DNA of 64,000 nt from positions 928,001-992,000 of the forward strand of contig CAVYTA010000006.1 in NCBI GenBank assembly GCA_963771355.1, read 5' to 3'. A program made the translations under genes and the position numbers. The DNA comes from an uncultured Candidatus Rokubacteria bacterium. Lineage in GTDB: Bacteria > Methylomirabilota > Methylomirabilia > Rokubacteriales > CSP1-6. Of this stretch, positions 7,444-62,876 are shown one piece after another. Below the pieces are notes generated by a model. The model was not told where the DNA came from and did no database searches. It worked only from the letters and a program-made list of their open reading frames with translations. Within the stretch, counting starts at the first letter, position 1; each line of letters opens with the position of its first letter.

Positions 7444-8228
7444 TGGCCGGGGCCGGGATCATACCCGGCCGCGCCGCCGCTGAAGCACGGCGGCAAGGAT
7501 GGAAGGTCGTGGCGTTTGCCTTCGAAGAGGCGCCCGGCCTCGCCGACGCCGCCGAGCGCGTCCTGCCCTCGTCCATCACCGAGATCCAGACCGTGCTCAC
7601 CGCGCTCGCCGCCGAGCGCGTGACCGCGGTCGCCTTCGTGGGCAAGTTCTGGAAGCAGAGCGTGTTCTCCGCCGCCGGGCGCGGTGATGTCGCGGGCCAG
7701 CGGCTCGGCCGGGAGGGCCTCTCCGACGACGCGCTCGCGCGCATGGCCGTGGTCACGCTGGAAGCCATGGGGGTCGAGGTGCTCGACCAGCGGCGCTTCC
7801 TCGGGCCGTGGCTGCTCAGCGCGGAGCAGCTGACCTCTCGCGCGCCCACGGATGCTGAGTGGGAGGAGATCCGAGCCGGCTGGCGCCTGGCGCGCGAGCT
7901 CGCCAACCGCGGGGTCGGCCAGACGCTGGTGCGCGCCCGCGGCGTCACCGTGGCGGTGGAGGCGTCCGAGGGTACCGACGAGACCATACGGAGAGGCGTC
8001 CGTTTATCGGGCCCGGGCGCGGTGGTGATCAAGGCGGTGGCGGACGATCACGACTTCCGCTTCGATGTGCCCGCGGTGGGGCTGGCCACGCTCGACGCCA
8101 TGGCCGCGGGAGGCGCCACCGCGCTGGCGGTGGCGCGGGGTCGAACCCTCCTGGTGGACGGCGAGGCGGTCATGCGTCGGGCGGAGGAGGCCGGCATCGC
8201 GGTGGTGACGCTCGAGGACGGGGCATGA
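7422..8228 (+). CDS. lpxI: UDP-2,3-diacylglucosamine diphosphatase LpxI
   Basis: LGLMAGAGIIP N-terminus, GVGQT, AVEASEGTD, DFRFDVPAVG; GTG start after GGAGGA. Confidence 0.88.
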   Translation: MERCLGLMAGAGIIPGRAAAEARRQGWKVVAFAFEEAPGLADAAERVLPSSITEIQTVLTALAAERVTAVAFVGKFWKQSVFSAAGRGDVAGQRLGREGLSDDALARMAVVTLEAMGVEVLDQRRFLGPWLLSAEQLTSRAPTDAEWEEIRAGWRLARELANRGVGQTLVRARGVTVAVEASEGTDETIRRGVRLSGPGAVVIKAVADDHDFRFDVPAVGLATLDAMAAGGATALAVARGRTLLVDGEAVMRRAEEAGIAVVTLEDGA

Positions 8229-9391: not shown

Positions 9392-10041
9392 CGGCGTCGC
9401 CCCCACTGGCGCTGCGGCTCGGGCTCCCGCTCGGGGCGGCCGCGCTCCGCCTCCTCGCCAGCACCTGCGCGGTGCGCTTCGCGGAGGGGGACGCGGGCGC
9501 GCGCTGGCGGGCGGGCACGCCGTTCGTGTTCGCCACCTGGCACTCGCGCGTGCTCCTGCTGCCCTACCTCTATCGCGGCCGGCGGCTCCGCGTGCTCACC
9601 AGCCGATCGCGGGACGGCGAGCTGGTGGCGCGCCTCTGCGCCCGCATGGGCCTGGAGGTCGTGCGCGGGTCTTCAAGCCGGGGGGGCGCGAGCGCGCTTC
9701 GCGCCCTCACGCGGTCGCTGGCCGAGGGCGTCAGCGTGATGGTGGTGCCGGATGGCCCCCGTGGGCCCCGGGAGATCGTCAAGCCGGGGCTGGTCACGCT
9801 GGCCGCGCTGACCGGGGCGGCGATCGTGCCGGTGGCGCTGGGCGCCTCCGCCGAGTGGCGGCTGCGCTCCTGGGACGGCTTCCGCATCCCGCGCCCCTTC
9901 GCCCGCTGCGTGATGCGCTTCGCCGCACCCATCGCGGTGGCGCGCGACGCCGATCGCGACGTGCGTGAGGCGGCTCGCAAGGAGATCGAGGCGGCGCTGC
10001 ACGCGGTGAGTGGACACGCGGACGCGGAGGCAGCCGCGTGA
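9388..10041 (+). CDS. DUF374 / lysophospholipid acyltransferase-like protein
   Basis: WH, SRSRDGE, RGSSSRGG, PDGPRGP, SWDGF.IP.PF motifs; usual position before waaA. Confidence 0.85.
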   Translation: MTASPPLALRLGLPLGAAALRLLASTCAVRFAEGDAGARWRAGTPFVFATWHSRVLLLPYLYRGRRLRVLTSRSRDGELVARLCARMGLEVVRGSSSRGGASALRALTRSLAEGVSVMVVPDGPRGPREIVKPGLVTLAALTGAAIVPVALGASAEWRLRSWDGFRIPRPFARCVMRFAAPIAVARDADRDVREAARKEIEAALHAVSGHADAEAAA

Positions 10042-11339
10042 TGCGCGCGCTCTACTCACTGGTCCTGGTCCTGGCGCTCGTCGTCTACGCACCCTTCGCC
10101 GTGCTGAAGCGGCTCCTGCGCCGCGGGCACCCGCTCAACCTCCGCCAGCGCCTGGGGCATATCGCAAGGGGCCTGCCCCCCGAGCCTCGCTGCTGGGTGC
10201 ACGCAGTCTCGGTGGGCGAAGCGATCACCGCGATCCCGCTGGTCGAAGCAATCCGCCGCCGCTGGCCCGAGCTCGCGGTGGTGTTGACCACGGTCACCCC
10301 CACCGGCGCGCGCATCGTGGTGGACCGGCTCTCGCCGGTGGCCACCCACCGTTATTTCCCGCTCGACCTGCCGGGCCCCGTGCAGCGCGCGCTCGGCGCC
10401 ATCAAGCCGCGCTTCTTCATCGGCATGGAGACCGAGCTCTGGCCGAACTTCCTGGGCGCCCTGGCGGGCCGTGGCATTCCGAGCATGATTGCCAACGGGC
10501 GCATCTCCGACCGGTCGTTCCGGCGTTACCGCTGGGTGCCCTTCCTCACCCGCCGCATGCTCGCCTCCGTCACCGTGTTCGGCATGCAGTCGCAGGAGGA
10601 CGCGCGCCGCATCATTGCCCTGGGCGCCTCGCCGGAACGCGTGGTGGTGACGGGCAGCCTCAAGACGGACGCCGAGCCGGAAAGCGCGGGAAACCGCGAG
10701 CTGTGGGAGAAGCTGCTCCGCCTCGCTCCCGTCGAGCGGGTGTGGGTGGCGGGGAGCACCCATCGGGGGGAGGAAGAGATCGTGGCCGAGGTCTTCGGTC
10801 GCCTCCGGCCGGACCATCCCGACCTCGTGCTCGTGCTGGCTCCCCGTCACCCCGAGCGCGTGACCGAGGTGGAGCGCCTCCTGGCCGGCCGGGGCCTGGC
10901 CGCGGTGCGCCGGAGCCAGCTGCCCACCGCGCGAAGGGGTCAGCCCGTGATCATCCTCGATACGGTGGGCGAGCTGGCGCGCCTGTATCGGCTGGCCGAG
11001 GTGGTCTTCGTGGGGGGCAGCCTGGTGCCCACGGGGGGGCATAATATGCTGGAGCCGGCGCTGCGGGCGAAGCCCGTGCTCTTCGGCCCCTATACGAGCA
11101 ACTTCCGCGACAGCGCCGAGCTGATGCTGGAGGCAGGCGCCGCGCGGCGGGTGGCCGACGCGGCGGGGCTCGAGACGGAGCTTCGGGTGCTACTGGAGAA
11201 GCCGGACCTCGCCCGGGCCATGGGCGAGGCGGGCTTCCAGGCGGTGATCCGGCGGCAGGGCGGGGTGCGGGCCACGCTCGAGCTGGTGGAGCGATATCTG
11301 GCGGCGGAGGAGAGCGGCGAGCGACATGGCGAGCGGTGA
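10038..11339 (+). CDS. waaA: Kdo transferase
   Basis: WVHAVSVGE, ETELWPN, NGRIS, GSTH.GEE, APRHPER, GGHNMLEP. Confidence 0.95.
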   Translation: MMRALYSLVLVLALVVYAPFAVLKRLLRRGHPLNLRQRLGHIARGLPPEPRCWVHAVSVGEAITAIPLVEAIRRRWPELAVVLTTVTPTGARIVVDRLSPVATHRYFPLDLPGPVQRALGAIKPRFFIGMETELWPNFLGALAGRGIPSMIANGRISDRSFRRYRWVPFLTRRMLASVTVFGMQSQEDARRIIALGASPERVVVTGSLKTDAEPESAGNRELWEKLLRLAPVERVWVAGSTHRGEEEIVAEVFGRLRPDHPDLVLVLAPRHPERVTEVERLLAGRGLAAVRRSQLPTARRGQPVIILDTVGELARLYRLAEVVFVGGSLVPTGGHNMLEPALRAKPVLFGPYTSNFRDSAELMLEAGAARRVADAAGLETELRVLLEKPDLARAMGEAGFQAVIRRQGGVRATLELVERYLAAEESGERHGER

Positions 11340-12504
11340 AATCGCGAGGAACGAGACGGGAAGGGGACGCGCGAGCAGCGAGTCCGTGGTGCGTCTACGC
11401 CGGGACCCCGAGGGCTGGCTACGGAGCGCGTGGGAAGAGGGAACCCACCCCGTGCTGGCGGCAGGCCTCAGCACGCTCTCCTTTGGTTATCGCGCGGCCT
11501 TGCTGGTCCGCGGGCTGTCCTACGACTGGCGCCTGCTCTCCACTCGGCGTCTGCCCTGTCCGGTAGTCTCGCTCGGCAACTTGACCGTGGGCGGCAGCGG
11601 CAAGACCCCGCTGGTCGAGCTGGCGGCGCTCACGCTGGTCGCCCTCGGTGCCGCCCCCGCCGTGGTGAGCCGCGGTTATGGCCGCTCGACGCGCGGCGTC
11701 TACGTGGTGGCCGACCGTCAGAGCGTGCGGCTCGGGGCACGGGGGGCAGGGGACGAGCCCCTGCTCCTGGCCGAGCGGCTGCCCGGGATCCCCGTGGTGG
11801 TGGGCGAGAACCGTTTCGAGGCCGGGCGCCACGCGGTGGAAACCCTCGGTGCCTCCGTCATCGTGCTCGACGATGGCTTCCAGAATCGCACCATCGCCAA
11901 GTCCCTCGAGATCCTGGTGGTGAGCGCCCGCTCGCCGTGGGGCAATGGCCGTCTCTTTCCAAGCGGTCGCTTGCGCGAGCCCCTCTCCGCACTCCAACGG
12001 GCCCAGCTGGTGGTCGTCACCAATCCGCGCGGGGACGAGGACGTGGAGGCAGTGACGCGCGCGCTGCGGCTGCACGATTCGCCCGCGCCCGTGGCCTCCG
12101 CGCGGTACGAGCCCGTCGAGGCACGCCGCGCCGAGGACGGCGCACGCCTGCCCCTCGCGGACCTGGCGCGGCGGCGGCTGCTCGCCTTCGGCGGGCTCGC
12201 CGCCCCGCGCTCCTTCATGGAAACCGCGCAGGCCCTGGGCATCCCGCTGGCGGGCTTCATCGAGTTCGGCGACCATCACTGGTATACCGACGGCGATCTC
12301 GCGGAGGTGGCGCGGCGGGCGGCGCTCGCGGGCGCCGAGGGCCTCATCACGACCGAGAAGGACGCGATGCGCCTCCGCGATCTCGCGCTGCCGCGCCTCC
12401 CGCTCTGGATCCTCTCGGTGCGCATGGTGCTCGCGACCGGCCAGGCCGCGTGGGTGAACGCGCTCCGCCAGGTCGCCGCACCCGCGCGAACCGGGGGGCA
12501 ATGA
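11326..12504 (+). CDS. lpxK: Tetraacyldisaccharide 4'-kinase (start may be slightly downstream)
   Basis: GNLTVGGSGKTP, SRGYG, GDEP, LDDGFQ, DHH.Y, TTEKD. Confidence 0.94.
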   Translation: MASGEIARNETGRGRASSESVVRLRRDPEGWLRSAWEEGTHPVLAAGLSTLSFGYRAALLVRGLSYDWRLLSTRRLPCPVVSLGNLTVGGSGKTPLVELAALTLVALGAAPAVVSRGYGRSTRGVYVVADRQSVRLGARGAGDEPLLLAERLPGIPVVVGENRFEAGRHAVETLGASVIVLDDGFQNRTIAKSLEILVVSARSPWGNGRLFPSGRLREPLSALQRAQLVVVTNPRGDEDVEAVTRALRLHDSPAPVASARYEPVEARRAEDGARLPLADLARRRLLAFGGLAAPRSFMETAQALGIPLAGFIEFGDHHWYTDGDLAEVARRAALAGAEGLITTEKDAMRLRDLALPRLPLWILSVRMVLATGQAAWVNALRQVAAPARTGGQ

Positions 12505-51845: not shown

Positions 51846-52340
51846 ATGTCCGAGCCCACGATGGAGGGCCTCGCGCGGCGGGTGGAACAGCTGGAGCGGG
51901 ACAACCGACGCTGGCGGCGCGGGGCGACCCTGGGCCTCCTGCTGCTCGTGAGCGGGGGCCTGCTCGGCCAGGCGCCCATCGTCCCCGGGGCCGCGAAGGC
52001 GCTCGAGGCCGAGCAGTTCAACCTGCGTGACGGGCGCGGCAATCTCCGCGGCTCACTGGGCGCCGCCACGGACGGCACCGCCAGCCTCGTCCTCTACAAT
52101 ACGGCCGGCATGCGCCAGGCCGGGCTCGGCGTCCTGCCCGACGGCACCGCCAGCCTGTTCCTCGGCAGTCCCGCCGGCCACACCGCGACCGAGCTCACGC
52201 TGTACCGCGACGGCACCCCCAGCCTGGTGGTGCGCGACCGCGCGGGCAAGACGCGCGTGCTCCTCGGTGCCGCCGCCGACGGCCAGCCTTTTATCTACTT
52301 CCTCGACGCCGCGGGGGCCAATACCTGGAAGGCGCCGTGA
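51846..52340 (+). CDS. Hypothetical membrane-anchored protein with 23-aa beta-repeats
   Basis: GGAGG RBS; coiled coil, TM segment, repeats DGT(A/P)SL at period 23. Confidence 0.75.
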   Translation: MSEPTMEGLARRVEQLERDNRRWRRGATLGLLLLVSGGLLGQAPIVPGAAKALEAEQFNLRDGRGNLRGSLGAATDGTASLVLYNTAGMRQAGLGVLPDGTASLFLGSPAGHTATELTLYRDGTPSLVVRDRAGKTRVLLGAAADGQPFIYFLDAAGANTWKAP

Positions 52341-52365
52341 GGGCGCGCACCAACGGTCGGTCCCC

Positions 52366-52420
52366 GTGATGGAGCGACGCGTCCTCCTGGCGATGGTCCC
52401 AGGTAGCCTTATCGCATTGC
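52366..52420 (+). pseudogene. Isolated 5' fragment (signal region) of the orphan ABC SBP family
   Basis: Encodes MERRVLLAMVPGSLIALPVA; shares CCCGTGATGGAGCGACGC with the copies at 53247 and 61118(-). Confidence 0.7.
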
Positions 52421-52453
52421 CAGTCGCCCCGAGGTGCGAAGGGAGGAGGACCG

Positions 52454-52708
52454 ATGCCATCGAAACGGAATCCGGCCCCACCAAAGAAGGCCCTGCGCAA
52501 GCCGCTGACCGAGGAGCGCGCCCGTGACGCGATCGCGCGCGAAGAGTCGATCCCCGGCGATAAGGTGCGCATGACTTTTCGCGTCGTGCTGGCGCGCCAG
52601 GACGCCGAAGCCCTCGCCGCCCGGGCGATCCGCGAGGAGAAGAACATCGTCACCCTGGTGACAGAGATTCTCGAGGCCGCCGCGGCGATGGGCCAGGGGG
52701 GTCCGTGA
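52454..52708 (+). CDS. Small hypothetical protein, possible ribbon-helix-helix C-terminus
   Basis: Strong GGGAGGAGG RBS; beta-strand RMTFRVVL followed by two helices. Confidence 0.6.
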   Translation: MPSKRNPAPPKKALRKPLTEERARDAIAREESIPGDKVRMTFRVVLARQDAEALAARAIREEKNIVTLVTEILEAAAAMGQGGP

Positions 52709-52871
52709 TCGCGACGACGCCGCTTACCGGGTGCAACATCACGCGCGTGACCTTTTGTCGATTTGTTCTCGAAACAGATGGAGTTGCTCAAGCAGGTAGT
52801 TGCAGGTCTCAAACGTGTGGCGTGAGGTAGTCCGCCTCGAGCAGCTCGGCCTGGAAGGGCAGGGTCGTGGT

Positions 52872-53147
52872 CTACGCTCCGGCTCGGGCGTGCGCCAGGC
52901 GGAGCCCTTCGTTGATCCGCGGTACGGCCCCGGGAGCCCGAACCCTCGCCAGGTCCAGCAGCTCGCGCGCCTCATTTTCCGTGCCGACGAATGAGAGGAA
53001 GGTCCCGCGAAGCGGTTGAGGTCGCTCGAGCCGAATGACGGCCTCGAGACGGGACAACAGACTCGACCCCGGATCCACCCAGGCGAGGAGCTTGACGAGC
53101 TCTTCCTGCGTGAGTTCCACGTCGACGGTCTTACCCGCGGTCGTCAT
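52872..53147 (-). CDS. Small hypothetical protein (paralog of 57004-57276)
   Basis: GGAGGG RBS; V..EL...E..LL and AP.AVP.I...L..A..R pattern shared with paralogs. Confidence 0.65.
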
Positions 53148-53249
53148 GGCCGTCCCTCCGGCGCTGCCTCGTCCGAGGAGTACAACACGCGTGGCCCACG
53201 TATTTAAACCCACGAAAGGTGTCTATGGCTCGGCGCAGAGGGAGGGCCC

Positions 53250-54239
53250 GTGATGGAGCGACGCACCTTCCTGGCGCTAGTCCCGGCGGGTCTCCTCGCC
53301 GCGCCGGTCGCGGGTGGCGCGCAGCTGGCCGCGAAGCTGTGGCGGATCGGGTATTTGGACCAGGGATCCCTAGTCAACAACCGGCTCTACGTGGACGGGC
53401 TCAGGCAAGGGCTGGGCGACCTCGGCTGGGTCGAAGGGCGAACCATCGTCATCGAGAGCCGGTTCGCCGAGGGCAAGACGGATCAGCTTCCCCGGCTCGC
53501 GGCCGAGCTCGTGCGCTCCAAGGTGGATGTGATCGTCACCTCGACCACCCCGGCGGCCCTGGCGGCCAAGCATGCCACCGCGACGGTCCCCATCGTCATC
53601 GGATTCGTGGCCGATCCGGTCGGGAGCGGCATCGTCGTCAGCCTCGCGCGCCCCGGCGGGAACATCACCGGGTGGACACACTCGGGCCGCGAGCTTCGCG
53701 CCAAGTACCTGGAGCTGCTCAAGGCCGCCGTTCCCAGCGCGACGCGCTTCGGTGTCCTCTGGAACCCGGCGAACCAGGTCCATCAACCCTCGATGCAGAA
53801 CATCGAAGCCGCCGCCCGGCAACTCAAGGTGGAGCTGCACCTGGCAGGCGCGCAGGAATCCAAGGAGCTCGAGCGCGCCGTGTCGGGGCTGATGGAGAAG
53901 CGCGTCCAGGCCCTCGTCGTCTTCCCCGACGGCATGTTCCAATCTCACACATCGCAGATCGTCGCGCTTGCGGCGCGACACCGGCTCCCCGCCGTGTACG
54001 GTCTCAGGGAATTCGCGGAGGCCGGAGGTCTGATGGCCTATGGGGCCAATGTGGCCACAATGCACCGGGAGCTCAGCGCGTCTCTGGTGGACAAGATTCT
54101 CAAGGGGGCCAGGCCGGCAAGCCTTCCCGTCGCGCAGCCGACCAAGTTCGATCTGCTGATCAACCTCAAGACGGCCAAGGCGCTCGGCCTGAGGATCCCG
54201 CCGTCGCTTCTGGCCCGGGCAGATCAGGTGATCGAGTGA
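53250..54239 (+). CDS. Orphan ABC transporter substrate-binding protein (ABC_sub_bind / PF04392-like)
   Basis: RRxFL twin-arginine-like signal, [49 protein letters not shown]. Confidence 0.9.
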
Positions 54240-54478
54240 TGGACCGCCGCGCGTTCCTTGCTGGTGCTGCCGGGCTCCTGGCCGCGCCGCTCGCCGCCGT
54301 GGCGCAGCCGGCGGGGAAGGTCTGGCGGATCGGACTCCTCGTCCCCGGCCTGCCGCCCGGCTGCGGCAGCGAACAGCCGACCAAGTTCGAGCTGGTGATC
54401 AATCTCAAGACCGCGAAGGCACTCGGCCTCACGATCCCGCCGTTTGTGCTTGCGCGGGCGGATCAGGTGATCGAGTGA
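54236..54478 (+). pseudogene. Internally deleted SBP copy (head fused in frame to tail)
   Basis: [34 protein letters not shown] joined via [10 protein letters not shown] to [35 protein letters not shown]. Confidence 0.8.
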
Positions 54479-54506
54479 CTGTGGCAGAACCGGACGCATC
54501 CGAACC

Positions 54507-55034
54507 GTGACCGATCAGGGTGTGGTCGTCCTCGGCATCCCAATCCCGTCGTCCTCTCCGTTATTCCTAAGCATCGTGGCGGTACATGTGGTCGCGGGCC
54601 TTATCTGTACCGTCGCGGGAATCGTGGCCATGCTGAGTCCAAAAGGTCCCGGCCGGCATCCGTCTGCAGGGACGCTCTACTACTGGAGTCTGGTGGTGGT
54701 CTTCCTGACCATGGCCGCCCTGTCCATCCTCCGCTGGCCAGCGAACACGCACCTCTTTATCCTAGGCGTCCTGTCATTTGTCGCCGGCGTAATCGGCCGG
54801 ATAGCAAGACGGTCCCGCTGGCCGAGCTGGCTTCCGGTGCACGTCACGGCCATGGCCGTGTCGTACATCGTGCTTCTCACCGCGTTCTACGTGGACAACG
54901 GGCCGCATCTGCCGCTGTGGCGTTCGCTGCCACCGCTGGCGCACTGGCTCCTGCCGAGCCTTGTTGGTCTTCCCATTCTGGTCTGGGTGCTGCGACGCCA
55001 CCCACTAATTCGGCGCGCTCGCAGCGTTCCGTAG
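54507..55034 (+). CDS. Multi-pass membrane protein (DUF2306-like)
   Basis: About five hydrophobic segments; HV.AG, KG...H, H...M..SY, TAF.VDN. Confidence 0.7.
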   Translation: MTDQGVVVLGIPIPSSSPLFLSIVAVHVVAGLICTVAGIVAMLSPKGPGRHPSAGTLYYWSLVVVFLTMAALSILRWPANTHLFILGVLSFVAGVIGRIARRSRWPSWLPVHVTAMAVSYIVLLTAFYVDNGPHLPLWRSLPPLAHWLLPSLVGLPILVWVLRRHPLIRRARSVP

Positions 55035-55171
55035 CCCTCCGTGAACCCTGAGGAGAAAAGGGCGGCTGCTGCTGACGGGCCAGACCGAATGTCGGTAGCG
55101 AACGTAGGCCTTGCGTGACTTGTCGTGCACCCGGCGTGGTTTGAAATGGCCTGGAATACCAGCCGTGCCTC

Positions 55172-55202
55172 TTGACACGAAATAGGATATTACTATAGTA
55201 AT
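55172..55202 (+). promoter_or_regulatory. Promoter with overlapping palindromic operator upstream of the XRE gene
   Basis: TTGACA 55172-77, TATAGT 55194-99, perfect palindrome ATTACTATAGTAAT 55189-55202. Confidence 0.65.
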
Positions 55203-55407
55203 GAGCCCACGGAAGAAGATGAGCGCGACGATTCGGAAGCTACGGGAGCGTCACAATATGACCCAGGCGGAGCTCGCTAAGAGGGTGAAGGTGACGCAGG
55301 GCTATATCTCGCAGCTTGAGGCCGGGACCAAGAAAGAACTGGGAGCGAAGGTTGCCCTGCGGCTCGCGGATGCTTTAGGCGTGCCAGTGACGGAGTTGTT
55401 GGGTTGA
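55201..55407 (+). CDS. XRE/Cro-like HTH transcriptional regulator (alternative start 55219)
   Basis: IRKLRE...MTQAELA..V.VTQGYISQLEAG...LADALGV. Confidence 0.9.
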   Translation: MSPRKKMSATIRKLRERHNMTQAELAKRVKVTQGYISQLEAGTKKELGAKVALRLADALGVPVTELLG

Positions 55408-55438
55408 GCAGAATTTGCGCAGAGTCCGCGGGGCCGCG

Positions 55439-55690
55439 ATGAGCCCTGACCTCGACGCCCGCGAGCTTCACCGCGTCATCACCGCTAGCGTGCGCGAGCT
55501 GCTCGAGACCGCCCGGCTCGAGGCGCAGGCCGGCCCGATGGACGTGGCCGAGATCGAGCGCCTCATCTTCCGCGCCGCCGCGCCCATCGTCCACAGCGTG
55601 TCGCCGTTGACCGAGGCGCAGCGCGGCGAGCTGCTCCCGAATATCGTCCGCGTCATGCTGGCGGCCTTCCTCGAGGCGCACGCGCGATGA
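55439..55690 (+). CDS. Small hypothetical protein; 3' part duplicated at 56413
   Basis: GC-biased codons; most differences from the duplicate are synonymous in this frame. Confidence 0.65.
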   Translation: MSPDLDARELHRVITASVRELLETARLEAQAGPMDVAEIERLIFRAAAPIVHSVSPLTEAQRGELLPNIVRVMLAAFLEAHAR

Positions 55691-55695
55691 CGGCC
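55542..55695. repeat. Repeat A, copy 1 (154 bp)
   Basis: Ungapped near-identity to 56413-56566. Confidence 0.9.
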
Positions 55696-55777
55696 ACCGC
55701 CCGACACTCTACGGCTTCAAAGACCCGGCAGGATCTCGCGCGGCAGCTCGAGGGGCCGGGAGAAACAGGAGAAGCAA

Positions 55778-56143
55778 ATGTTTGACGAACGGGAGCGGAA
55801 GTTACTCCGGGCCTTCTCGGACGTGGTGCGGTTCGAGATCGACGCGCTCCATGACCGCTATGAGACCCTGAAACTCAAAGAGCACGCGCTCCATCTAGCG
55901 CTCGTGCGCAAGGGTGTGCTCACCATCGAAGAGTGGAATAGCGCGGTCACCGAAGCGCGCGCCGAGATCGCCATCCAGCTGGCCACAGCTGACATCACGT
56001 CGGGGCGAGTCCAGGAACGACAAGCGGTTGCTGCGGATCTGGACATGTACTGGGCGGCTGCCCAAGAGCCCGACGGAGCATTTCTCCAGCCGGTCCTCCG
56101 TGTGCTCATCAAGATGCTCAACTTGCCGGAGGAGGGGCGATGA
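55778..56143 (+). CDS. Hypothetical protein (121 aa)
   Basis: AGGAG RBS, helical composition, L..KG.LT.EE motif. Confidence 0.65.
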   Translation: MFDERERKLLRAFSDVVRFEIDALHDRYETLKLKEHALHLALVRKGVLTIEEWNSAVTEARAEIAIQLATADITSGRVQERQAVAADLDMYWAAAQEPDGAFLQPVLRVLIKMLNLPEEGR

Positions 56144-56180
56144 TCGCCGCCATCTACGCCCGCAGGCGCACCGACCGAGG
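56140..56180 (+). pseudogene. Possible N-terminal stub of a serine recombinase
   Basis: MIAAIYARRRTD resembles the Y.R.ST catalytic N-terminus; ATGA-coupled to the upstream ORF. Confidence 0.45.
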
Positions 56181-56213
56181 AGTAGGGGAGGGAGCACGAC
56201 GACCCTACTTCTT

Positions 56214-56412
56214 CTCGCGAGCCCGCTTGAGCGCCCGCTCGATCGCGGGCAGCGCCTCCGGGGCGTGGACGAGCGCGAGAGCGCGCAAGCCGAGGGCGTC
56301 TGTCACGAAGCCGGTGAAGGGGTAGGGGCCCACCTTGCATTTGCGTGCGCTCGTCTCGGGCTCGACGACCCGGAGCAGACGGGCCGCTACGCGGGAACTG
56401 TTCCTTGCGTGT
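56214..56412. repeat. Repeat B, copy 1 (199 bp); 5'-truncated paralog of the minus-strand 57004 gene
   Basis: Ungapped similarity to 57010-57208. Confidence 0.9.
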
Positions 56413-56566
56413 ACGTGGCCGAGATCGAGCGCCTCATTTTCCGCGCTGCCGCGCCCATCGTCCACAGCGTGTCGCCGTTGACCGAGGCGCAGCGCGGCGA
56501 GCTGCTCCCGCATATCGTCCGCGTGATGTTGGCGGCCTTCCTGGAGGCGCAAGCGCGATGACAGCC
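56413..56566. repeat. Repeat A, copy 2 (154 bp), abutting repeat B copy 1
   Basis: Matches 55542-55695. Confidence 0.9.
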
Positions 56567-56622
56567 TGGCAAGATCCCACGCGGCTGCACGAGTGGTCGG
56601 GGGAGGAGCCGATCAAATGACG

Positions 56623-56886
56623 CTAGACGGGTTTGGTCCGCTCCAGCTCCCACGCCGCGAAGCACCGGAAGTGCAGGTGGTGCGTTTGCTTTCCGCCGAC
56701 GACTCTACGGAGATCGTCGAAGTGGATCTCCAGTGCCACCTGCTTGCTTGGAATCGTGACCTCGCAAACCGCGCAGAGTTCCCCGCGGCCCGGCCCGCCG
56801 TAGGTGCGATCGGCCGCCCGCCCGGGCAAGCGTCTGTGCGAAATCGCCACGCGCACCTTCTCGCGGAGAAGCAGCTCGTCAGACAT
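56623..56886 (-). CDS. Small CxxC...HxxC putative Zn-binding protein
   Basis: GPGRGELCAVC...LHFRCFAAW; paralog of 61422-61667. Confidence 0.7.
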   Translation of the reverse strand: MSDELLLREKVRVAISHRRLPGRAADRTYGGPGRGELCAVCEVTIPSKQVALEIHFDDLRRVVGGKQTHHLHFRCFAAWELERTKPV

Positions 56887-57003
56887 GTGGCTAGACATGT
56901 TGATAACCATAGTCGCGCTTCTTTTCGCCGAGCGCCAGAGCCAATGACGGACAGTTTTCGAGCTCTGCAAATAGAGAAATGCGGAACACTCTGCGCGTAT
57001 GGG

Positions 57004-57276
57004 CTACGCCTCGCGAGCCCGCTTCAACGCCCGGTCGATCGCGGGCACGGCGTCCGGGGCATGGACGAGCGCGATGCTGCGCAAGGCGAGCCCGTCCGTC
57101 AGAAAGCCGGTGAAGAGATAGGGGCCCCGCTTGCCTTTGCGTGCGCTCGTTTCGGGCTCGACGACCCGGAGCAGACGGGCCGCTACGCGCGAGCTGTTCC
57201 TTGCGTGTTTCAAGAGCACGAGGTATTGCGCCTCGCTCAGCTCGATCTGAACGGGCAGGGGCTTGGTGGTCGCCAC
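57004..57276 (-). CDS. Small hypothetical protein (contains repeat B copy 2)
   Basis: Protein frame conserved with 56205-56412 and similar to 52872-53147. Confidence 0.65.
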   Translation of the reverse strand: MATTKPLPVQIELSEAQYLVLLKHARNSSRVAARLLRVVEPETSARKGKRGPYLFTGFLTDGLALRSIALVHAPDAVPAIDRALKRAREA

Positions 57277-57344
57277 AGTGCCGCCGATAACAGCACGCCG
57301 TCTATAGCTCGTCAACCCATCGACCGAGAGCAGCAGGGGAGGGG

Positions 57345-58427
57345 ATGATGGCCAAAATCGTCACGCGCGTGTGGACCAGCCGCGGGCCCCACCGGCAAGA
57401 GGATCCGCCACGTGAGCTACGGCTATGACGTTCGGATCGACGGCCGGCGTGAACACACGGTATCAACCGAGTGGACGACGCAGGCCGAGGCGCTCGAGGC
57501 GCTCGGCAACCGGCTCAAGGATGCTGAGCACGGCAAGGTGAGCAAGCCCGCGGATGCCACGCTGGGCGCGCTGGTGGAGACCTATCTCCAGTAAAGGCCG
57601 AGAAACACAAGCGCTCGCTCCGAGAGGATCGCTGCATCCTGAAAACGCGCCTGCTGCCCGCCTTCGGCGCCGAGCTGCCAGCGCGTCGGCTCACCGAGCA
57701 GCTCATCGCGCAGTCGAGCGGCGGCGCACGGGGCAGTGAGTGTGTTCACCGTCGCTAACGAGCTCACGGTGCTGCGGCACATGCTGCGCCTCAGCCGTCG
57801 GTGGGGCTATCTCTCACAGGTGCCCGAGATCGACATGCCGAAGAAGCCGGAGGGGCACCGGCGGTTTTTGGACGAAGCCGAGATCGGGCAGCTCCTCACG
57901 GCGTGCCGCGAGTCGCGCAATCCCTACCTTCCCGCGATCACCACGCTCGCGCTGCACACGGGGATGCGCAAGGCCGAGATCCTCGGGCTCGAGTGGGCGC
58001 GCGTGGATCTCTCGACCTCGCGCCTGACGCTCTACAGGACGAAGAGCGGCAAGCCGCGCGGCCATCCCCATCAACCGCGCGGTATACGGCGCGCTGGTGG
58101 CGTTGGAGCCCGACTAGGCCCGCCGTGAGGGCCTCGTGTTCACGCGGCGCGACGGCGCGGCGTGGGGCAGATTCGCTCGGCCTTCGCCAAGGCCCTTGAG
58201 CGGGCCGGCATCAAGGGCTTCCCGTTCCACGATCTTCGGCACACGGCGGCGACCATCTGGTCATGCGGGGGGCGAGTCTCAAGGACGTGCAGGAGCTCCT
58301 CGGGCATTCCGATCTCAAGATGACGCAGCGCTATGCGCACCTCAGCCCGGCCTATCTCCGCGGAGCCGTGGATCGCCTCGACGGGCTCGCGGGTGGGCAC
58401 ATAGATGGGCACAAAGTGCTAAAATGA
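57345..58427 (+). pseudogene. Tyrosine recombinase/integrase, multiply frameshifted
   Basis: Fragments in different frames: TGMRKAEI (R), TKSGK (K), FHDLRHT, ELLGHS..MT.RYAH; premature stops near 57592 and 58115. Confidence 0.9.
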
Positions 58428-58495
58428 CCTCGACGCCGGACGCTGCGTCTCGCACGTCTGCGCAAGTGGTTGAAGTATCAGCCGCTGGTGGGGAC

Positions 58496-58572
58496 GCCCC
58501 CGTAGCTCAGTTGGATAGAGCAACAGTTTCCTAAACTGTGGGTCGCCTGTTCGATTCAGGCCGGGGGCACCA
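58496..58572 (+). tRNA. tRNA-Arg (anticodon CCT)
   Basis: GCCCCCG/CGGGGGC acceptor, ACAGT-TTCCTAA-ACTGT anticodon arm, TTCGATT T-loop, ACCA end. Confidence 0.96.
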
Positions 58573-58677
58573 CTTCCCACCGAATAGGAAGGCGTCTTTG
58601 ACACCTGAGCAGCGCAGTGAGCTTGTCCGGAAAGCAGCCCGGGCTCGCTGGTCGAAGGCGAAGCGGGCGAAGTAACG

Positions 58678-58887
58678 TCACCTCGGCTCAGCCGACCACA
58701 ACCGTTCGCACACCTCGATCTGCTGCGTCCACGTCGCGTGCAGCTCGCGGTGAACGACCGCGATCTCAGGATGGAAGTCCCGGTAGTGCTCCGGATCGTC
58801 ACCGCCGCACGGCAGACTCGGCGGGATCGTCTTCAGGTTCAGGCGTTCGTACCAGCCTCCGCAGCCGAACTCCGACCAGGGGATCAT
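58678..58887 (-). CDS. Small hypothetical protein
   Basis: ATG overlaps the stop of the upstream ORF (ATGA coupling); no recognisable motif. Confidence 0.35.
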   Translation of the reverse strand: MIPWSEFGCGGWYERLNLKTIPPSLPCGGDDPEHYRDFHPEIAVVHRELHATWTQQIEVCERLWSAEPR

Positions 58888-59126
58888 CGGCGACTTGAGC
58901 GAAAGTGCTTCCTGAGATAGGCGGCGAGGCTGGCCTCGTCGTCGCCGCGCGCCTCCGCGTGCGTCTGCCAGGACGTCCCGTCGAATTGATAGTGCGACCA
59001 GCGCCCCCCGAAGACCTGGATGCGGTCGAGGAGATGCTCCCCGTGCGCGAAGAAGCAGGTGCCGCGCGTCGTGGGCACCTGCACCCAGCCGTGCGTTTCG
59101 AGGACTTGGAGGTACGCCGTTAGCAT
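58884..59126 (-). CDS. Small hypothetical protein (80 aa)
   Basis: GGAGGAG RBS upstream of ATG 59126; GC-biased codons. Confidence 0.6.
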   Translation of the reverse strand: MLTAYLQVLETHGWVQVPTTRGTCFFAHGEHLLDRIQVFGGRWSHYQFDGTSWQTHAEARGDDEASLAAYLRKHFRSSRR

Positions 59127-59559
59127 TTGGTCTGGCTCTCCTCCCTCGACTAGGAGTGCAATCGAAGCACCACTCCAAAATCGCCAAAAACGTCGCGGGG
59201 ATGCCAGACTTCTCCTGGCCTCGAAGGCATCACATTTGCGGGGTGGCTCACGTGTTCTGGAGCCCGGCCGGCAGGCTCGCCGCCGACCAAACCGCGAGGC
59301 GGCAGGCGCACTACGCGTGTATCGTGTTCGCCTCAATCTCGACGGGACGCTCCACCATCGCGGCGACGAGCCGCCACTAGAGCCCGAGGCATACGACTCC
59401 CAACACGACGGCCAGCCCCGTCGTACTCCAGGCGACAGCCGCTCCACAGGCGAGGAACGGGGCGAGCGGTAGAGCGGCGAAGCAGAGCGTGCTCCTTACA
59501 GGATCGCCCTGACCGCCTGCTCTGGATGCCGTAGTGCTGGAATCGAACGCAACCAGGAG

Positions 59560-59811
59560 GTGCGGCCCGGGCGCTTAAATGTCATCGCCGGGCTCGTGGC
59601 CTTGGTTCTCGTCGGAGCTGTCCTGTGGATCATGTTCTACGGCCCGCGGGCAACGCGGGGTGTCGCCAGCGTCGCCAGCACCGAAACCTCCACCGCTCCG
59701 GCGACGAGCGAGAGCACCACGAGGAACAGCACGAGGTTGATCCAGTCGGCCATCAACCCGCCTCCCCGAGGATCGGCACCAGCTGCGCCGTCTCGCCATC
59801 CACGGGAATGA
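59560..59811 (+). CDS. Possible small bitopic membrane protein
   Basis: One hydrophobic segment followed by a Ser/Thr/Pro-rich tail. Confidence 0.35.
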   Translation: MRPGRLNVIAGLVALVLVGAVLWIMFYGPRATRGVASVASTETSTAPATSESTTRNSTRLIQSAINPPPRGSAPAAPSRHPRE

Positions 59812-60004
59812 CAACCCACTCGCGCATGTGGCCGCACCACTCGACCCTATGCCTGAACCGTGGAGGCTCCCCCATGTACCCGCGGGAGCCGACGCTTTTC
59901 GATCCCCGCCCGTACCGGAACACCGACCCACGGACGTTCAGCTCTCTGCTCTGCGACTAAGCGGAGTCTGCTGACCCGTTCGACTCCACACGCCGAGGGC
60001 GAGG

Positions 60005-60120
60005 GGTCCACCCGGGATGAGTCCGATCCGGTACATCTGCCCTGCCGGTTGCGCCTCGGCGGCGAGCGGTGTGGTAAGCAGCGCGGCAGCACCGGCAAGG
60101 AACGCGCGGCGATCGGTCAC
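60005..60120 (-). pseudogene. 5' fragment of orphan SBP (head only)
   Basis: [34 protein letters not shown]; closely matches the 54236 head; GTGA overlap with the upstream SBP stop. Confidence 0.8.
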
Positions 60121-61112
60121 TCGATCACCTGATCCGCCTGCAAGAGCAACGACCGCGGGATCGTCAGGCCGAGGACCTTCGCGGTCTTGAGGTTGATGAT
60201 CAGCTCGAACTTTACCGGCGCCTGGACGGGAAGCTCGTTCGGCGTCGCACCCTTGAGGATGCGATCCGCATAAGTCGCCGCGCGCTGGAAACTATCGAGC
60301 AGGTCATTTCCGTAGGACAGCAGCCCGCCCAGTTCAATGAAATCACGAAACGGATAGACGGCAGGAAGACGGTAGCGAGCAGCCAGCGATGTAATCCTTT
60401 CGCGATGGGTGACCAGGAATGAATCCGTCATCACGACGAGTCCACCATTCGGCGTGCGTGCCTGTGCTGCAATGGCGGATTCGAGCTCTGAGGTGTTGCG
60501 AACAGGGGTGGGAATCGCTTCCATGGCGACGGAGGCAGCGGCGGCTTTGAAGGGGCCCAGATAATATTCCGCAAAGGGCGCCGTTGCCGGGTTGAAGATG
60601 AAGGCGACCCGGGCGACACGCGGCGCAACCTCCTTGAGCAGCTCCAGCCACTTGCTGGCCATTGTCGGCTCAATGTTGGTAAACCCGGTGACGTTGCCAC
60701 CAGGCCGCGGAAAGCTCGCAACGAAGCCGCTGCCGATCGGATCCGAAACGACCGCGAAGACGATGGGGATGGTGCGCGTGTGTTGCAGCAAAGTCGCCGT
60801 GGTAGGGGTGTTATGTGAAAGAATGAGGTCGGGCTGTAGCGCGACAAGCTCCTTCGCGAATCGTTGCATCGCTGGCGCGTCGGACGACGTCGCCCAGCGA
60901 ATATCGATGCGGACGTTGCGGCCCTCCGTCCACCCGAGCGTCTGGAGCCCCTTGCGGAACGCCCCGACGCGGGCCTGTGCTGGCGGGTCCCTCTCGGCAA
61001 GCCCCATCAGCACCCCGATCCGCCGCATCTGACTTGTTTGCTGGGCCCCGGCGGCGAGCGGCGCGGTAAGGAAACCTCCTGAGACCAGCGCGAGGAGCGT
61101 GCGTCGCTCCAT
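60117..61112 (-). CDS. Orphan ABC transporter substrate-binding protein (ABC_sub_bind-like)
   Basis: MERRTLL signal, [44 protein letters not shown]. Confidence 0.9.
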   Translation of the reverse strand: MERRTLLALVSGGFLTAPLAAGAQQTSQMRRIGVLMGLAERDPPAQARVGAFRKGLQTLGWTEGRNVRIDIRWATSSDAPAMQRFAKELVALQPDLILSHNTPTTATLLQHTRTIPIVFAVVSDPIGSGFVASFPRPGGNVTGFTNIEPTMASKWLELLKEVAPRVARVAFIFNPATAPFAEYYLGPFKAAAASVAMEAIPTPVRNTSELESAIAAQARTPNGGLVVMTDSFLVTHRERITSLAARYRLPAVYPFRDFIELGGLLSYGNDLLDSFQRAATYADRILKGATPNELPVQAPVKFELIINLKTAKVLGLTIPRSLLLQADQVIE

Positions 61113-61421
61113 CACGGGTCCCTTTTCAGTGCCGCTTTGAGCAGCCCCCGGATCGCCGCGTCGAGCTCCCGCCGGGCCTCCGACTTCCGCTGCCGGCTCC
61201 GAACGGCCCGACACCGGCCCCTGCACACCGCCTGGCCGGCGTGGATCGGCACCTTCTGGCACACGGGTCATAGCCGGGAGGCTAGCACGTCCTCAGGCGG
61301 TACTCCGGATCGTCGTCGACAGGACGATGGTCAAGGGCATGGTCGGTCTCCCGCCCGACAAGGTGCACTGCAGCACATACGTGGCTTGCATTCCGTCGGG
61401 CGCGCCCAGCAGCGGCACCGG

Positions 61422-61667
61422 TTACACATCGCATGTGGGCCACTCCTTCGACCAGACGTCGTAGCATTTGCGATGGAGCCGGATGGTGCCGCCGCCGGGC
61501 AGGTCGCATTCGACTTCGACGTCGCTGGCCGCGATGGGCCTCTCGCATGCCACGCAGATGCCGCCGGTTCCGGGCCCATACCAAGTCATGCGGCAGTGCA
61601 CCTTCGGGAGAACCCCGGCAAGGATCTTCTCCCGGATCGCGTGCCGCAGATCGTCGGATGGGCTCAT
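61422..61667 (-). CDS. Small CxxC...HxxC putative Zn-binding protein
   Basis: GPGTGGICVAC...LHRKCYDVW; paralog of 56623-56886. Confidence 0.7.
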   Translation of the reverse strand: MSPSDDLRHAIREKILAGVLPKVHCRMTWYGPGTGGICVACERPIAASDVEVECDLPGGGTIRLHRKCYDVWSKEWPTCDV

Positions 61668-61704
61668 GGCGAGGAGCATACGCCAGGCCGCTGGCTTCCA
61701 CCTT

Positions 61705-61839
61705 GGAGCCAAGCCCGGCGATCTCCCCATGGAGCAACCCGCGAAGTTCGAGCGGGTCATCCACCTCAAGAGCGCCAAGGCCCTCGGCGTGACCATCCCG
61801 AAGTCCCTCCTACTCCGAGCAGATCAGGTGCTCGACTGG
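61705..61839 (+). pseudogene. 3' fragment of orphan SBP (tail only)
   Basis: GAKPGDLPMEQPAKFERVIHLKSAKALGVTIPKSLLLRADQVLD. Confidence 0.8.
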
Positions 61840-62024
61840 CTCTCCCGGGGCCCCACCCGAGCATCCCCCTCCCACCTCGCCTCAGGTCCGGCACGGGCTG
61901 TATGTCCCCGTTCCGTGTGCACTTTATGTCGGTGTCATCTCCTTGACAGTCGATTCTCCTCGAGGACTATTCGCAAGTGCGCAATCTGTTTAGGGATTCC
62001 CCTTGGCCTGCACCTTGCTAGGAT

Positions 62025-62876
62025 ATGGAGCATGATTCAGGGGGGGTCTCGATCTCTGCCGAAGGCCGGCGCGGGGTGCGCTGGGTGGCGCGCGCGATCG
62101 GCTTTGCCCTACTCGGCATCGCGGCCGTCGCGGGCGCCACCGTCGGGCTCGAGGCGCAGGGGCGTCAGCCGCTCACGGGGCGCGTGGTGCGCGTCATGGA
62201 CGGCGACACCATCGCGGTGCGCGTGGACAAGCGTGTTTTTACCGTGCGCTACATCGGAACCAACACGCGCGACGCGCGCATGCCCGGGGATAGTGTGGAC
62301 GCGGGCCCCACCGAGGCGGCCGAGTTCAACCGTGCCCTCGTACTGGGGCAGACGGTGCGGCTCGAGATGGACGCGCAGGAAAAGGACGCGCAGGGCCGCC
62401 TGCTCGCCTACGTCTACGTCGGGGACCTGATGGTCAATGCCGAGCTCGTTGCCAATGGGTACGCCGAGGTCGCCATCAAGCCGCCGAACGTGATGCACGA
62501 GGAGATGCTCCAGCAACTGCAGCGCCAGGCGCGGCTCCTCAAGGTGGGGCGCTGGCGCGACTCGCCCTACGTCGGGCGCGAGCCCGGCAGCCGCCGCGCC
62601 GGCGCGCCTCCGAAGCAGTCCGCCTCCGCCGGCGATCCCAAGACGGCTCCGGCCGGACGCACCTTCGGCACGGTGGACCGGCCCGGGGCGGCGCCTCACG
62701 ACGCGTGGACCTGCCCCATCTCCCATCCCGTCAAGGGGGCCGTGAACCCCAGCAATACCGGAGAGCGGCTCTACCACCTGCCGGGAGGCGAGGCATACGC
62801 GAAGACCCAGCCCGAACGCTGCTACGCCAACGCCGAAGAGGCGCGCGAGGACGGGACGCGCCGCGCTCAGCGCTGA
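62025..62876 (+). CDS. Secreted thermonuclease (SNase-like) with C-terminal Cys/His domain
   Basis: DGDTI, VRYIG.NT, D..GRLLAYVY, NAELV.NGYA; C-terminal CP...VKG..N...YHLPG...Y....PERCY. Confidence 0.85.
   Translation: MEHDSGGVSISAEGRRGVRWVARAIGFALLGIAAVAGATVGLEAQGRQPLTGRVVRVMDGDTIAVRVDKRVFTVRYIGTNTRDARMPGDSVDAGPTEAAEFNRALVLGQTVRLEMDAQEKDAQGRLLAYVYVGDLMVNAELVANGYAEVAIKPPNVMHEEMLQQLQRQARLLKVGRWRDSPYVGREPGSRRAGAPPKQSASAGDPKTAPAGRTFGTVDRPGAAPHDAWTCPISHPVKGAVNPSNTGERLYHLPGGEAYAKTQPERCYANAEEAREDGTRRAQR

Follow-up and report, generated by a model that had tools for sequence, protein, structure and literature searches.

Orphan solute-binding protein genes with conserved ends and variable cores in a tRNA-linked island of a Candidatus Rokubacteria genome

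A 64-kb stretch of DNA from an uncultured Candidatus Rokubacteria bacterium (the window; coordinates without a contig prefix are window positions) carries, between 52363 and 61838, six complete or partial copies of genes of the PF04392 (ABC_sub_bind) family of solute-binding proteins (SBPs). A first-pass annotation of the window, made from the sequence alone, had described these copies and proposed that their conserved ends act as recombination handles, in a dedicated cassette or diversification system that shuffles ligand-binding cores and captures cargo. The analysis described below follows up that proposal. In our reading, the six copies are probably members and debris of an amplified PF04392 family in an island at a tRNA-Arg gene, and the gene ends have likely served as homology arms for ordinary RecA-type recombination, through which cores are exchanged, array members are lost and stubs remain.

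The genome under study has 5.5 Mb in eight contigs and about 70% G+C. It is called G000 where genomes have to be told apart; G001-G007 are genus relatives among those compared, and C3 and C5-C8 are contigs of G000. All genomes compared are metagenome assemblies. The family hidden Markov model (HMM) used throughout was built from 34 full copies in G000 that had been collected with phmmer.

Copies of the family in the window

The six copies are as follows, with lengths and gene positions in nucleotides (nt) or codons; Tat stands for twin-arginine translocation.

52363..52437, forward: stub of about 23 codons consisting of a head only (MERRVLLAMVPGSL...), adjoining the conserved left-flank gene on its 3' side; exact head 18-mer
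53253..54239, forward: SBP1, full PF04392 gene, with predicted Tat-type head MERRTFLA and tail ADQVIE before the stop
54236..54478, forward: in-frame head-tail fusion of 80 codons; its start overlaps the SBP1 stop (GTGATGG)
60007..60120, reverse: stub of about 35-40 codons consisting of a head only (...RIGLI), similar to family genes up to gene nt 105; the SBP2 stop overlaps its GTG
60117..61112, reverse: SBP2, full PF04392 gene, mosaic
61702..61838, forward: tail-only stub without a stop codon of its own; Pfam 22.8 bits (below the cut-off)

The head 18-mer, CCCGTGATGGAGCGACGC, is found exactly at 52363-52380(+), 53247-53264(+) and 61101-61118(-). With up to three mismatches allowed, 0.39 matches are expected, and three or more were seen in 0 of 100 shuffles. 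Exact copies of the tail 18-mer, GATCAGGTGATCGAGTGA, lie at 54222(+), 54461(+) and 60117-60134(-), and a copy with three mismatches lies at 61822, in the tail stub (0.12 matches expected; five or more in 0 of 100 shuffles); one unrelated site with three mismatches lies at 15937. Both 18-mers, the two full genes, the fusion, the two head stubs and the tail stub are thus where the first-pass annotation had placed them. It had also counted from the GTG; the likely start is an ATG one codon on from the GTG, at 53253, 61112(-) and 52369. At 61118(-), the CCC and GTG before the ATG are read as CCG TGA, the end of a 50-codon upstream open reading frame (ORF) whose stop overlaps the ATG of SBP2.

Pfam matches to PF04392 extend over 53250-54239 (E 5.7e-47) and 60117-61115(-) (E 2.7e-47). 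Their scores, 160.8 and 161.8 bits, exceed the gathering score of 25.9, and profile positions 13/16-293, the whole mature domain, are covered. The family HMM places SBP1 at 53253-54236 (positions 1-327), the two parts of the fusion at 54239-54355 (1-40) and 54371-54475 (293-327), the head stub behind SBP2 at 60007-60114(-) (2-38), SBP2 at 60120-61112(-) (1-327) and the tail stub at 61702-61833 (283-326). The head stub at 52363 is too short for this model and is seen through DNA similarity only, with 75-79% identity to other heads over 65-76 nt, reaching gene nt 70; in a check of whether the stub is old, G005 proved to have other sequence there and no counterpart.

The SBP1 and SBP2 proteins are 43% identical to each other. 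Against the NCBIfam model of TrpX (NF041285) they score 144.6 (SBP1) and 123 bits, far under the cut-off of 390 bits, and therefore are not TrpX equivalogs. The relatives of SBP1 in the PDB are 3lkv, 3lft and 6hni, and structures of PF04392 bind L-Trp, L-Tyr and L-Phe (PMC10443332). TrpX and these three structures have the same domain as SBP1 and SBP2 across the whole mature protein. Unlike TrpX-type ATP-binding cassette systems, the genes in the window have no cognate permease or ATPase nearby, as the first-pass annotation had noted: neither PF02653 permeases (71 matches genome-wide) nor PF00005 ATPases (145 genome matches at E<=1e-10) are present in the 64 kb, and the nearest ATPase lies about 54 kb from the genes. 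A PF02653 match was found within 4 kb of 1 of the 34 full copies and at least 20 kb from the others (coordinates read by eye). In one metatranscriptome run, short contigs lie on parts of the window that include the SBP2 core (60510-60671 and 60862-61024); their share is small, and DNA carry-over is possible.

Conserved ends and mosaic genes

PF04392 has 49 matches in G000. The family HMM gives 35 full-length and 27 partial domain hits, grouped in 39 loci, about 15 of which are fragment loci. The family was found in all 31 genomes searched (30 relatives and G000), with 1-54 matches in each. Many paralogs, tandem arrays and a setting poor in permeases and ATPases characterize a lineage-specific expansion of orphan SBPs, here in a protein family that differs from TTT. 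Many of the copies stand in tandem arrays with a stop/start overlap (..ATC GAG TGA TGG A..), of two to four genes in G000 and at least seven in a relative, the latter in one orientation, about 980 nt apart and with identical junctions. The exact junction 19-mer is present at 74 loci in genomes of many species; most records in which the tail-head junction is exact bear the label Candidatus Rokubacteria or Methylomirabilota. The same 19 nt were also seen in metagenome-assembled genomes labelled Gemmatimonadales, Verrucomicrobiia, Acidobacteriota, Limnocylindria and Nitrosocosmicus, an archaeon (loci including L146, L160, L168, L171, L173, L177, L187 and L207), which points to contigs of Rokubacteria binned wrongly or else to transfer between phyla.

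About half of the 34 copies start with M-(D/E)-R-R-x-F-L, followed by an Ala/Leu-rich stretch and A-x-A-Q; one such N-terminus reads MERRTLLALVSGGFLTAPLAAGAQ. The Tat consensus is S/T-R-R-x-F-L-K, then a hydrophobic stretch and an A-x-A cleavage site. Judged from this motif, the head is a predicted Tat export signal; no Tat-signal model of Pfam or NCBIfam was reported for it. The best-conserved part of the protein is its last 40 or so residues. The 16S rRNA of G000 ends in ..GGATCACCTCCTTTCT, and AGGTGATC in the tail forms an 8-nt complement to it, 5 nt before the next ATG. The complement is present in 8 of the 10 copies that precede a family head, versus 9 of the 24 others (three rows reassigned by eye). 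The last codons, C AGG TGA TC, may thus double as the Shine-Dalgarno site for the next gene.

Conservation of the DNA was compared with that of the protein at alignment columns where at least 20 of the 34 copies share a degenerate amino acid, with the expectation taken from the codon usage of the family. Over the 116 core columns, identity between codons is 0.435, about the chance value of 0.413. It rises to 0.602 observed versus 0.416 expected in the head or signal (10 columns) and 0.601 versus 0.473 in the tail (35 columns), and the excess at the ends is also seen among 278 pairs with cores less than 40% identical. The preferred codon depends on the column (for Ala, 18 of 22 copies have GCG at one column, and 17 of 22 have GCC at a different one) and therefore is not the product of general codon bias. 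Among tails that encode DQVIE, 14 of 15 have the same 15 nt, for which codon usage predicts 0.078. In the subfamily with Tat-type heads and DQVIE tails, best-partner nucleotide identity reaches 75-86% in heads and 80-92% in tails; that of cores is 49-79%, and the best partner differs by segment. Amino-acid constraint and codon bias alone, the explanation that the first-pass annotation had set against its own proposal, do not explain the ends. The disagreement between trees of different segments that it had suggested looking for is also found: in approximately unbiased (AU) tests, the alignment of the ends rejects the core tree (delta lnL 161, p 6.6e-8), and that of the core likewise rejects the tree of the ends (delta lnL 389, p 6e-5).

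For comparison between genomes, 124 intact full-length genes from five genus relatives, taken from loci returned by a genome search, were added to the 34 of G000 for a total of 158. One core of about 850 nt is common to four genomes at 0.89-0.96 nucleotide identity; the corresponding heads are 0.56-0.79 identical. Between the G000 gene at C8:1114-2100 and its partner in G002, the tract of high identity runs from nt 110 to nt 956 (96.1%, flanks 50-57%). The same G000 gene shares nt 40-956 with G006 (95.9%) and nt 51-983 with G007 (89.7%), and the genes of G002 and G006 share nt 113-1043 (96.2%). Across pairs, the 60-nt flanks of these tracts have 29-57% identity. In G002, the gene with the shared core comes second in a tandem pair; this locus is syntenic with part of G000 C3 (flanks 88-91%), where G000 has the first gene only. 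In G000, it lies on C8 behind a Cys-rich small ORF and beside a tRNA-Leu gene, with another family gene after it. From the tRNA-Leu onward, five relatives show synteny with the C8 locus, and G004 has there the same upstream ORF, head and junctions (78-85%) with two cores for which no match above 0.62 exists in the sample. Summed contig depth in four runs from soil metagenomes is several-fold higher over the shared core (G000 C8, L038 1285-2033) than over its flanks, and contigs end at the 5' breakpoint, a pattern that would follow if this core had several contexts in those soils.

SBP2 is a mosaic of the same kind. From nt 48 onward, its body corresponds to a gene of G001, and between around nt 75 and the stop each 60-nt stretch is about 80-87% identical; its first 48-75 nt, the upstream ORF and the downstream stub do not match that gene. 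Along SBP1, identity to the closest core, C7:777162 (79%), is uniform, and no breakpoint stands out. The 5' breakpoints of the mosaics vary (gene nt 40, 48, 51, 110 and 113), and the exchanges would be homologous recombination or gene conversion rather than site-specific events. Separately, an attC-like hairpin at the junctions was considered and rejected. When folded as DNA and compared with 200 shuffles, three tail-side junctions (two tail-head and one tail-flank) and one of two heads (z +0.86) were the four of five stretches with z from +0.65 to +0.97; the z of -2.4 in the other head is not shared by its paralog.

The fragments hold ends without cores. Nine head stubs in G000 end at codons 6-11 or so (four), 23 (one), 35-47 (three) and 64 (one), and tail stubs begin at HMM positions 178, 240, 271, 283 and 293. 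Six of the nine head stubs come directly after the stop of a full gene; therefore, nearly every array or single copy of the subfamily ends in the start of a further head. None of the stubs bears a core, those of the window covering HMM positions 1-40, 2-38, 293-327 and 283-326 only, and they therefore cannot donate diversity. The fusion at 54236 is 87% identical in its head and 94% in its tail to the paralog at C7:711919-712896, and by this similarity it is an internal-deletion derivative of a paralog like that one, its core deleted in frame. With an identity of only 87-94%, the nearest parent is too distant to show microhomology at the fusion junction.

Head stubs end in clusters (codons 6-11 and 35-47); the 5' breakpoints of the mosaics are spread over nt 40-113. 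As to the capture of cargo, two loci hint weakly at it: at C6:33442, an unrelated ORF (small-monooxygenase-like by eye) stands between eight head codons and the last seven tail codons, and at C6:693413, foreign DNA lies between the upstream ORF and a tail.

The island and its repeated element

The remaining features of the locus are listed here, from the left to the right flank.

51846..52340, forward: last gene of the conserved left flank; syntenic in six genus relatives, 71-89%
52454..52708, forward: small ORF of 84 aa, no family; beside the same flank in G005 (84% nucleotide identity) and partly in G002
52872..53150, reverse: small ORF of 92 aa, no family
54507..55034, forward: membrane protein; weak DUF2306 match (Pfam E 1.1e-5, below the cut-off)
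55201..55407, forward: XRE-type helix-turn-helix (HTH) regulator, part of the repeated element; Pfam HTH_3 E 3e-17; copies at C5:1001608 and C6:695290
55436..57315, no single strand: repeated element modules, namely ORF99 (55436-55690), ORF121, a Cys-rich 115-aa ORF (56623-56970, reverse) and ORF103 (57004-57315, reverse)
57349..58427, forward: tyrosine integrase, split over several frames in the assembly; PF00589 pieces with E 8.8e-11, 5.1e-4 and 5.6e-8
58496..58572, forward: tRNA-Arg(CCT), called by ARAGORN; conserved anchor of the variable locus
61112..61264, reverse: small Cys-rich ORF of 50 codons, GC3 0.90, the 5' module whose TGA overlaps the SBP2 ATG
62025..62876, forward: SNase-domain gene, first of the conserved right flank; Pfam SNase E 1.1e-14; syntenic in relatives

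Both flanks (to 52340 and from about 62025) are syntenic in the genus, and the tRNA-Arg(CCT) gene is at the syntenic site in G001, G002, G004, G006 and G007. In G007, the left flank is followed by 1.2 kb, the tRNA-Arg gene, 135 nt and the right flank, with no family gene between. Compared with this layout, G000 has about 6.1 kb extra 5' of the tRNA gene (head stub, two small ORFs, SBP1, fusion, membrane protein, XRE regulator, repeated modules and tyrosine integrase) and about 3.45 kb extra 3' of it (ORFs without assignment, head stub, SBP2 with its upstream ORF, another Cys-rich ORF and the tail stub). From flank to flank, G007 has 1.5 kb, G000 and G002 each have about 10 kb, and G006 has other DNA amounting to about 19 kb. 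With variable content between conserved flanks at a tRNA gene, together with an integrase, the locus is a tRNA-linked genomic island, and the fragments in the window are better read as debris of such a mobile-element island. At the same site, G002, the closest relative, has six tandem family units, five of them frame-broken (in three or four pieces), followed by the same modules, integrase and tRNA gene (G002:C18:233000-247500, 6354-11434); the broken units reflect either real decay or long-read indel errors.

Proximity to tRNA genes, another check that the first-pass annotation had put forward, was counted over the whole family: 8 of the 39 family loci are within 5 kb of a tRNA gene, versus 3.1 +/- 1.7 at random (P about 0.011), in a count that left out 7 of 62 ARAGORN calls (those longer than 94 nt). 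ARAGORN also called a 99-nt tRNA-Asp(atc) at 57230-57328(-), overlapping ORF103, which is probably a false call. A direct repeat of the tRNA-Arg 3' end bounding the insertion at 58573-62025 was looked for, and only chance-size repeats of 12-22 nt were found.

The modules with ORF99 and ORF103 form an uncharacterised small integrative element. Each of these two ORFs has 10-11 matching stretches in G000 (tblastn), at four loci linked to SBP tails. The unit of SBP tail, HTH regulator, ORF99 and ORF103, with an integrase in two of the loci, is found in the window and at C6:9-3793, C6:694246-697084 and C5:1000590-1007190; further stretches with the modules are C6:1642-6975, C6:678311-697084 and C5:1002194-1007193. 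The copy in the window contains an internal 871-nt duplication (55539-55695 versus 56410-56566, 94% identical). In its integrase gene, position 58163 is followed by an additional G in independent contigs from two studies, and bases are also inserted after 57714 and 57735 in one run. At least one of the frame breaks is thus probably an assembly error, and the integrase may be intact in nature.

The 50-codon Cys-rich ORF upstream of SBP2 (..CPVCQKVPIHAGQEVCSGRCRAARSRQRK..) has nine matching stretches in G000 (tblastn), five of them directly upstream of a family gene, with 79-88% nucleotide identity between loci over about 170-260 nt. Further Cys-rich upstream ORFs in G000 are at C8:2103-2261, C7:712914-713057, C7:717473-717616, C5:1005445-1005603, C6:681339-681482, C6:693270-693413, C7:687486-687626 and C7:706809-706916, and two ORFs other than the five precede GAF-type sensor genes (read by eye). 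In this ORF family, the stop overlaps the ATG of the gene that follows. The ORF family looks like a portable leader or 5' module. Searches of Pfam and NCBIfam gave no match for the 50-aa Cys-rich ORF, ORF99, ORF103, ORF121, an 82-aa Cys-rich ORF or the two small ORFs of 84 and 92 aa, and only a sub-threshold RING-like match for the 115-aa ORF.

Two other observations concern small features of the locus. The products of 56623-56970(-) and 61422-61668(-) are small CxxC...HxxC proteins that are alike by eye, one of them with a weak, sub-threshold RING-H2 match. In the left-flank gene, 52070-52252 contains three repeats at a spacing of 69 nt, encoding a DGT(A/P)SL-type motif.

Weighing the explanations

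The part of the first-pass proposal in which the ends serve as recombination handles that shuffle cores is borne out by the codon excess, the incongruent trees and the mosaics. The part that calls for a dedicated cassette or diversification system is not, given the variable breakpoints, the lack of a hairpin, the stubs without cores and the lack of a recombinase tied to the arrays. In the mechanism that we favor, the ends would be conserved for ordinary reasons: export, fold and coupled translation. This conservation would leave blocks of 100-250 nt with 80-94% identity in genes whose cores are saturated by change. Homologous recombination or gene conversion could then use the end blocks to replace cores, delete array members and homogenise the ends, leaving stubs. 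Integrative elements that carry family genes may help to move them and would seed new loci near tRNA genes.

Several results weigh against this reading or narrow it. The clustered ends of the head stubs are not predicted by random deletion and are not fully explained. By construction, the AU test leans toward the maximum-likelihood tree of the alignment under test, and the alignment of the ends comprises only 219 sites. The synonymous excess in the last codons can be explained in part by selection for the ribosome-binding site and the stop/start overlap, without recombination; for the last six codons, the two causes are not separable. The listed contigs assembled from the short reads of four runs do not bridge the C8 breakpoints (31 nt on either side): they stop at about 1992-1994, where the assembly graph seems to branch, and therefore the evidence for the C8 mosaic is that of the assemblies. 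Longer ancestral arrays that lost different members could also have left unrelated cores in one syntenic frame without transfer between loci. Finally, 49 of the 158 genes have their nearest core (at least 0.80) in another genome, and for these a paralog in the same genome is closer by head in 11 and by tail in 7; the ortholog is closer in 38 and 42, respectively. Within G000, the same-genome paralog is closer in three of five for the head and three of five for the tail. With so few closest heads and tails in the same genome, exchange is seen to belong to the Tat/DQVIE subfamily of certain genomes and not to the family as a whole; elsewhere in the genus, the ends of most orthologs have been passed on vertically.

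A broader version of the preferred reading can be offered only tentatively, as a possibility that we find doubtful. It posits a pan-genomic pool of core cassettes of about 850 nt plugged into fixed frames, each frame consisting of the upstream small ORF, the Tat head, and the tail with the ribosome-binding site of the next gene. Exchange would go through the ends of about 100-250 nt, tRNA-targeting integrative elements would spread it between loci and strains, and the conservation of the ends would be maintained in part because exchange stays possible.

It is unlikely that the stubs are instead attachment-site duplications, left by an integrative element that targets the 3' ends of family genes, carries its own copy of the tail and duplicates the tail with each insertion. 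At four loci, the same element modules do lie 0.6-1.5 kb after a family tail (at a fifth, C7:779137, an ORF99-like piece stands alone), about 20 nt past the stop are also common to three loci, and direct tail repeats at 54344-54478 and 61705-61838 bracket the integrase. However, the tail pieces are of unequal length, with starts at HMM positions 166, 240, 271 and 293, the integrase end of the element abuts a tRNA gene, the usual target, in two loci, and the bounds of the 3' insertion show neither a tRNA-end repeat nor any other clean direct repeat. This explanation also leaves the head stubs and the mosaics unaccounted for.

Even less probable, in our judgment, is a dedicated site-specific system like an integron or shufflon, in which a recombinase acting at the tail-head junction moves cores and captures cargo. 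The arrays do resemble integron cassettes in running one way, with similar unit size and a repeated junction, the longest having at least seven genes with identical junctions, and their content differs between relatives, where different cores occupy one frame. The unrelated ORF between the 8-codon head and 7-codon tail at C6:33442, the recurring end points of head stubs and the several family tails that adjoin integrase elements are further points in its favor. Unlike in integrons, however, the junction consists of the coding ends of two functional proteins, breakpoints vary, and the three junctions folded gave no attC-like hairpin. The sole recombinase nearby is a phage-type tyrosine integrase by the tRNA gene, typical of ordinary islands, and most arrays have no integrase close to them. 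Among the 11 PF00589 matches in G000, none is beside the C7 or C8 arrays, and no IntI-type integrase or attI was seen beside arrays, IntI-specific features not having been examined.

An account without recombination, in which protein constraint, high-GC codon bias and the stop/start overlap explain the ends and the fragments come from random decay, is largely refuted and now very improbable. The head and tail are strongly conserved as protein across the family, most orthologs keep their ends, the exact junction 19-mer is no peculiarity of one genome, being at 74 loci of many species, and a chance of 0.078 for the exact 15 tail nt given DQVIE is not negligible. Against this stand the confinement of the codon excess to the ends (0.60 versus 0.42-0.47 expected) and its position-specific nature, the 14 of 15 DQVIE tails identical over 15 nt, the rejection of congruence by the AU tests and the 96%-identical cores that have 56-79%-identical heads in different loci.

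That the fragments and mosaics are an assembly artefact, reads of strains or paralogs mis-joined at repeated ends, is scarcely credible: three contig ends of G000 do fall in family or element repeats, the assembly has single-base errors relative to independent contigs, and short-read contigs break at conserved ends, but contigs of other studies reproduce the junction between the head stub and SBP2 (59577-60266, one difference) and that between the fusion tail and the next gene (54452-55482 and 54452-55470; the fusion interval 54186-54452 is unbridged among the contig matches listed), the repeats are only 75-94% identical with short exact runs, and the same core is in different contexts in four separately assembled genomes.

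The preferred reading, homologous exchange between conserved ends in an amplified family, can be set beside known systems. Orphan expansions of Bug/TctC (TTT) binding proteins are reportedly known in Bordetella and Cupriavidus.

The closest described case is Rhodoplanes sp. Z2-YC6860, with 434 TTT-family copies and tandem arrays of up to nine. Such expansions likewise have tens of paralogs, no adjacent membrane components, and tandem arrays whose neighbors are less than 50% identical as proteins (PMC5994714). The Rokubacteria family belongs to another fold family (PF04392, not PF03401) and another phylum. In the Rhodoplanes paper, 'recombination' and 'gene conversion' occur 0 times each, and ends conserved at the DNA level, stop/start-overlapped junctions, stubs and core swaps are not described (PMC5994714).

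In type I hsdS genes, target-recognition domains swap at conserved repeats, and concerted evolution by gene conversion is a feature of bacterial multigene families. As in hsdS, conserved stretches around a variable specificity segment are the crossover sites, mosaics occur and the trees of segments disagree. Unlike in hsdS, no inversion or phase-variation switch and no dedicated recombinase was seen in the Rokubacteria family, and exchange would be between genomes on an evolutionary scale, not within a clone. In the pilE/pilS, vlsE and msp2 systems, the variable segment is carried by silent, promoterless partial copies that serve gene conversion. The window resembles them in having truncated copies with conserved flanks near full genes; its stubs differ in holding conserved ends only and no core, and are not silent cassettes in that sense. 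Our search of the literature found no paper in which Rokubacteria are described as having expanded PF04392 or as exchanging genes through their ends.

Expansions of orphan binding proteins are known; how such repertoires turn over is not. In the subfamily described here, the export signal and the C-terminus would also work as recombination arms, with whole cores moving between frames and loci in an abundant, uncultured soil phylum. If the pooled-core reading were true, a plug-and-play receptor repertoire would result. Such exchange, if general, would explain how sensing or scavenging could be retuned without change in expression or export signals. It would also carry a warning for annotation, in that orthology of PF04392 genes could not be read from their ends or neighbors. 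Head-only and tail-only 'genes' in these genomes are, on the preferred reading, the debris of recombination and of islands, not novel small proteins.

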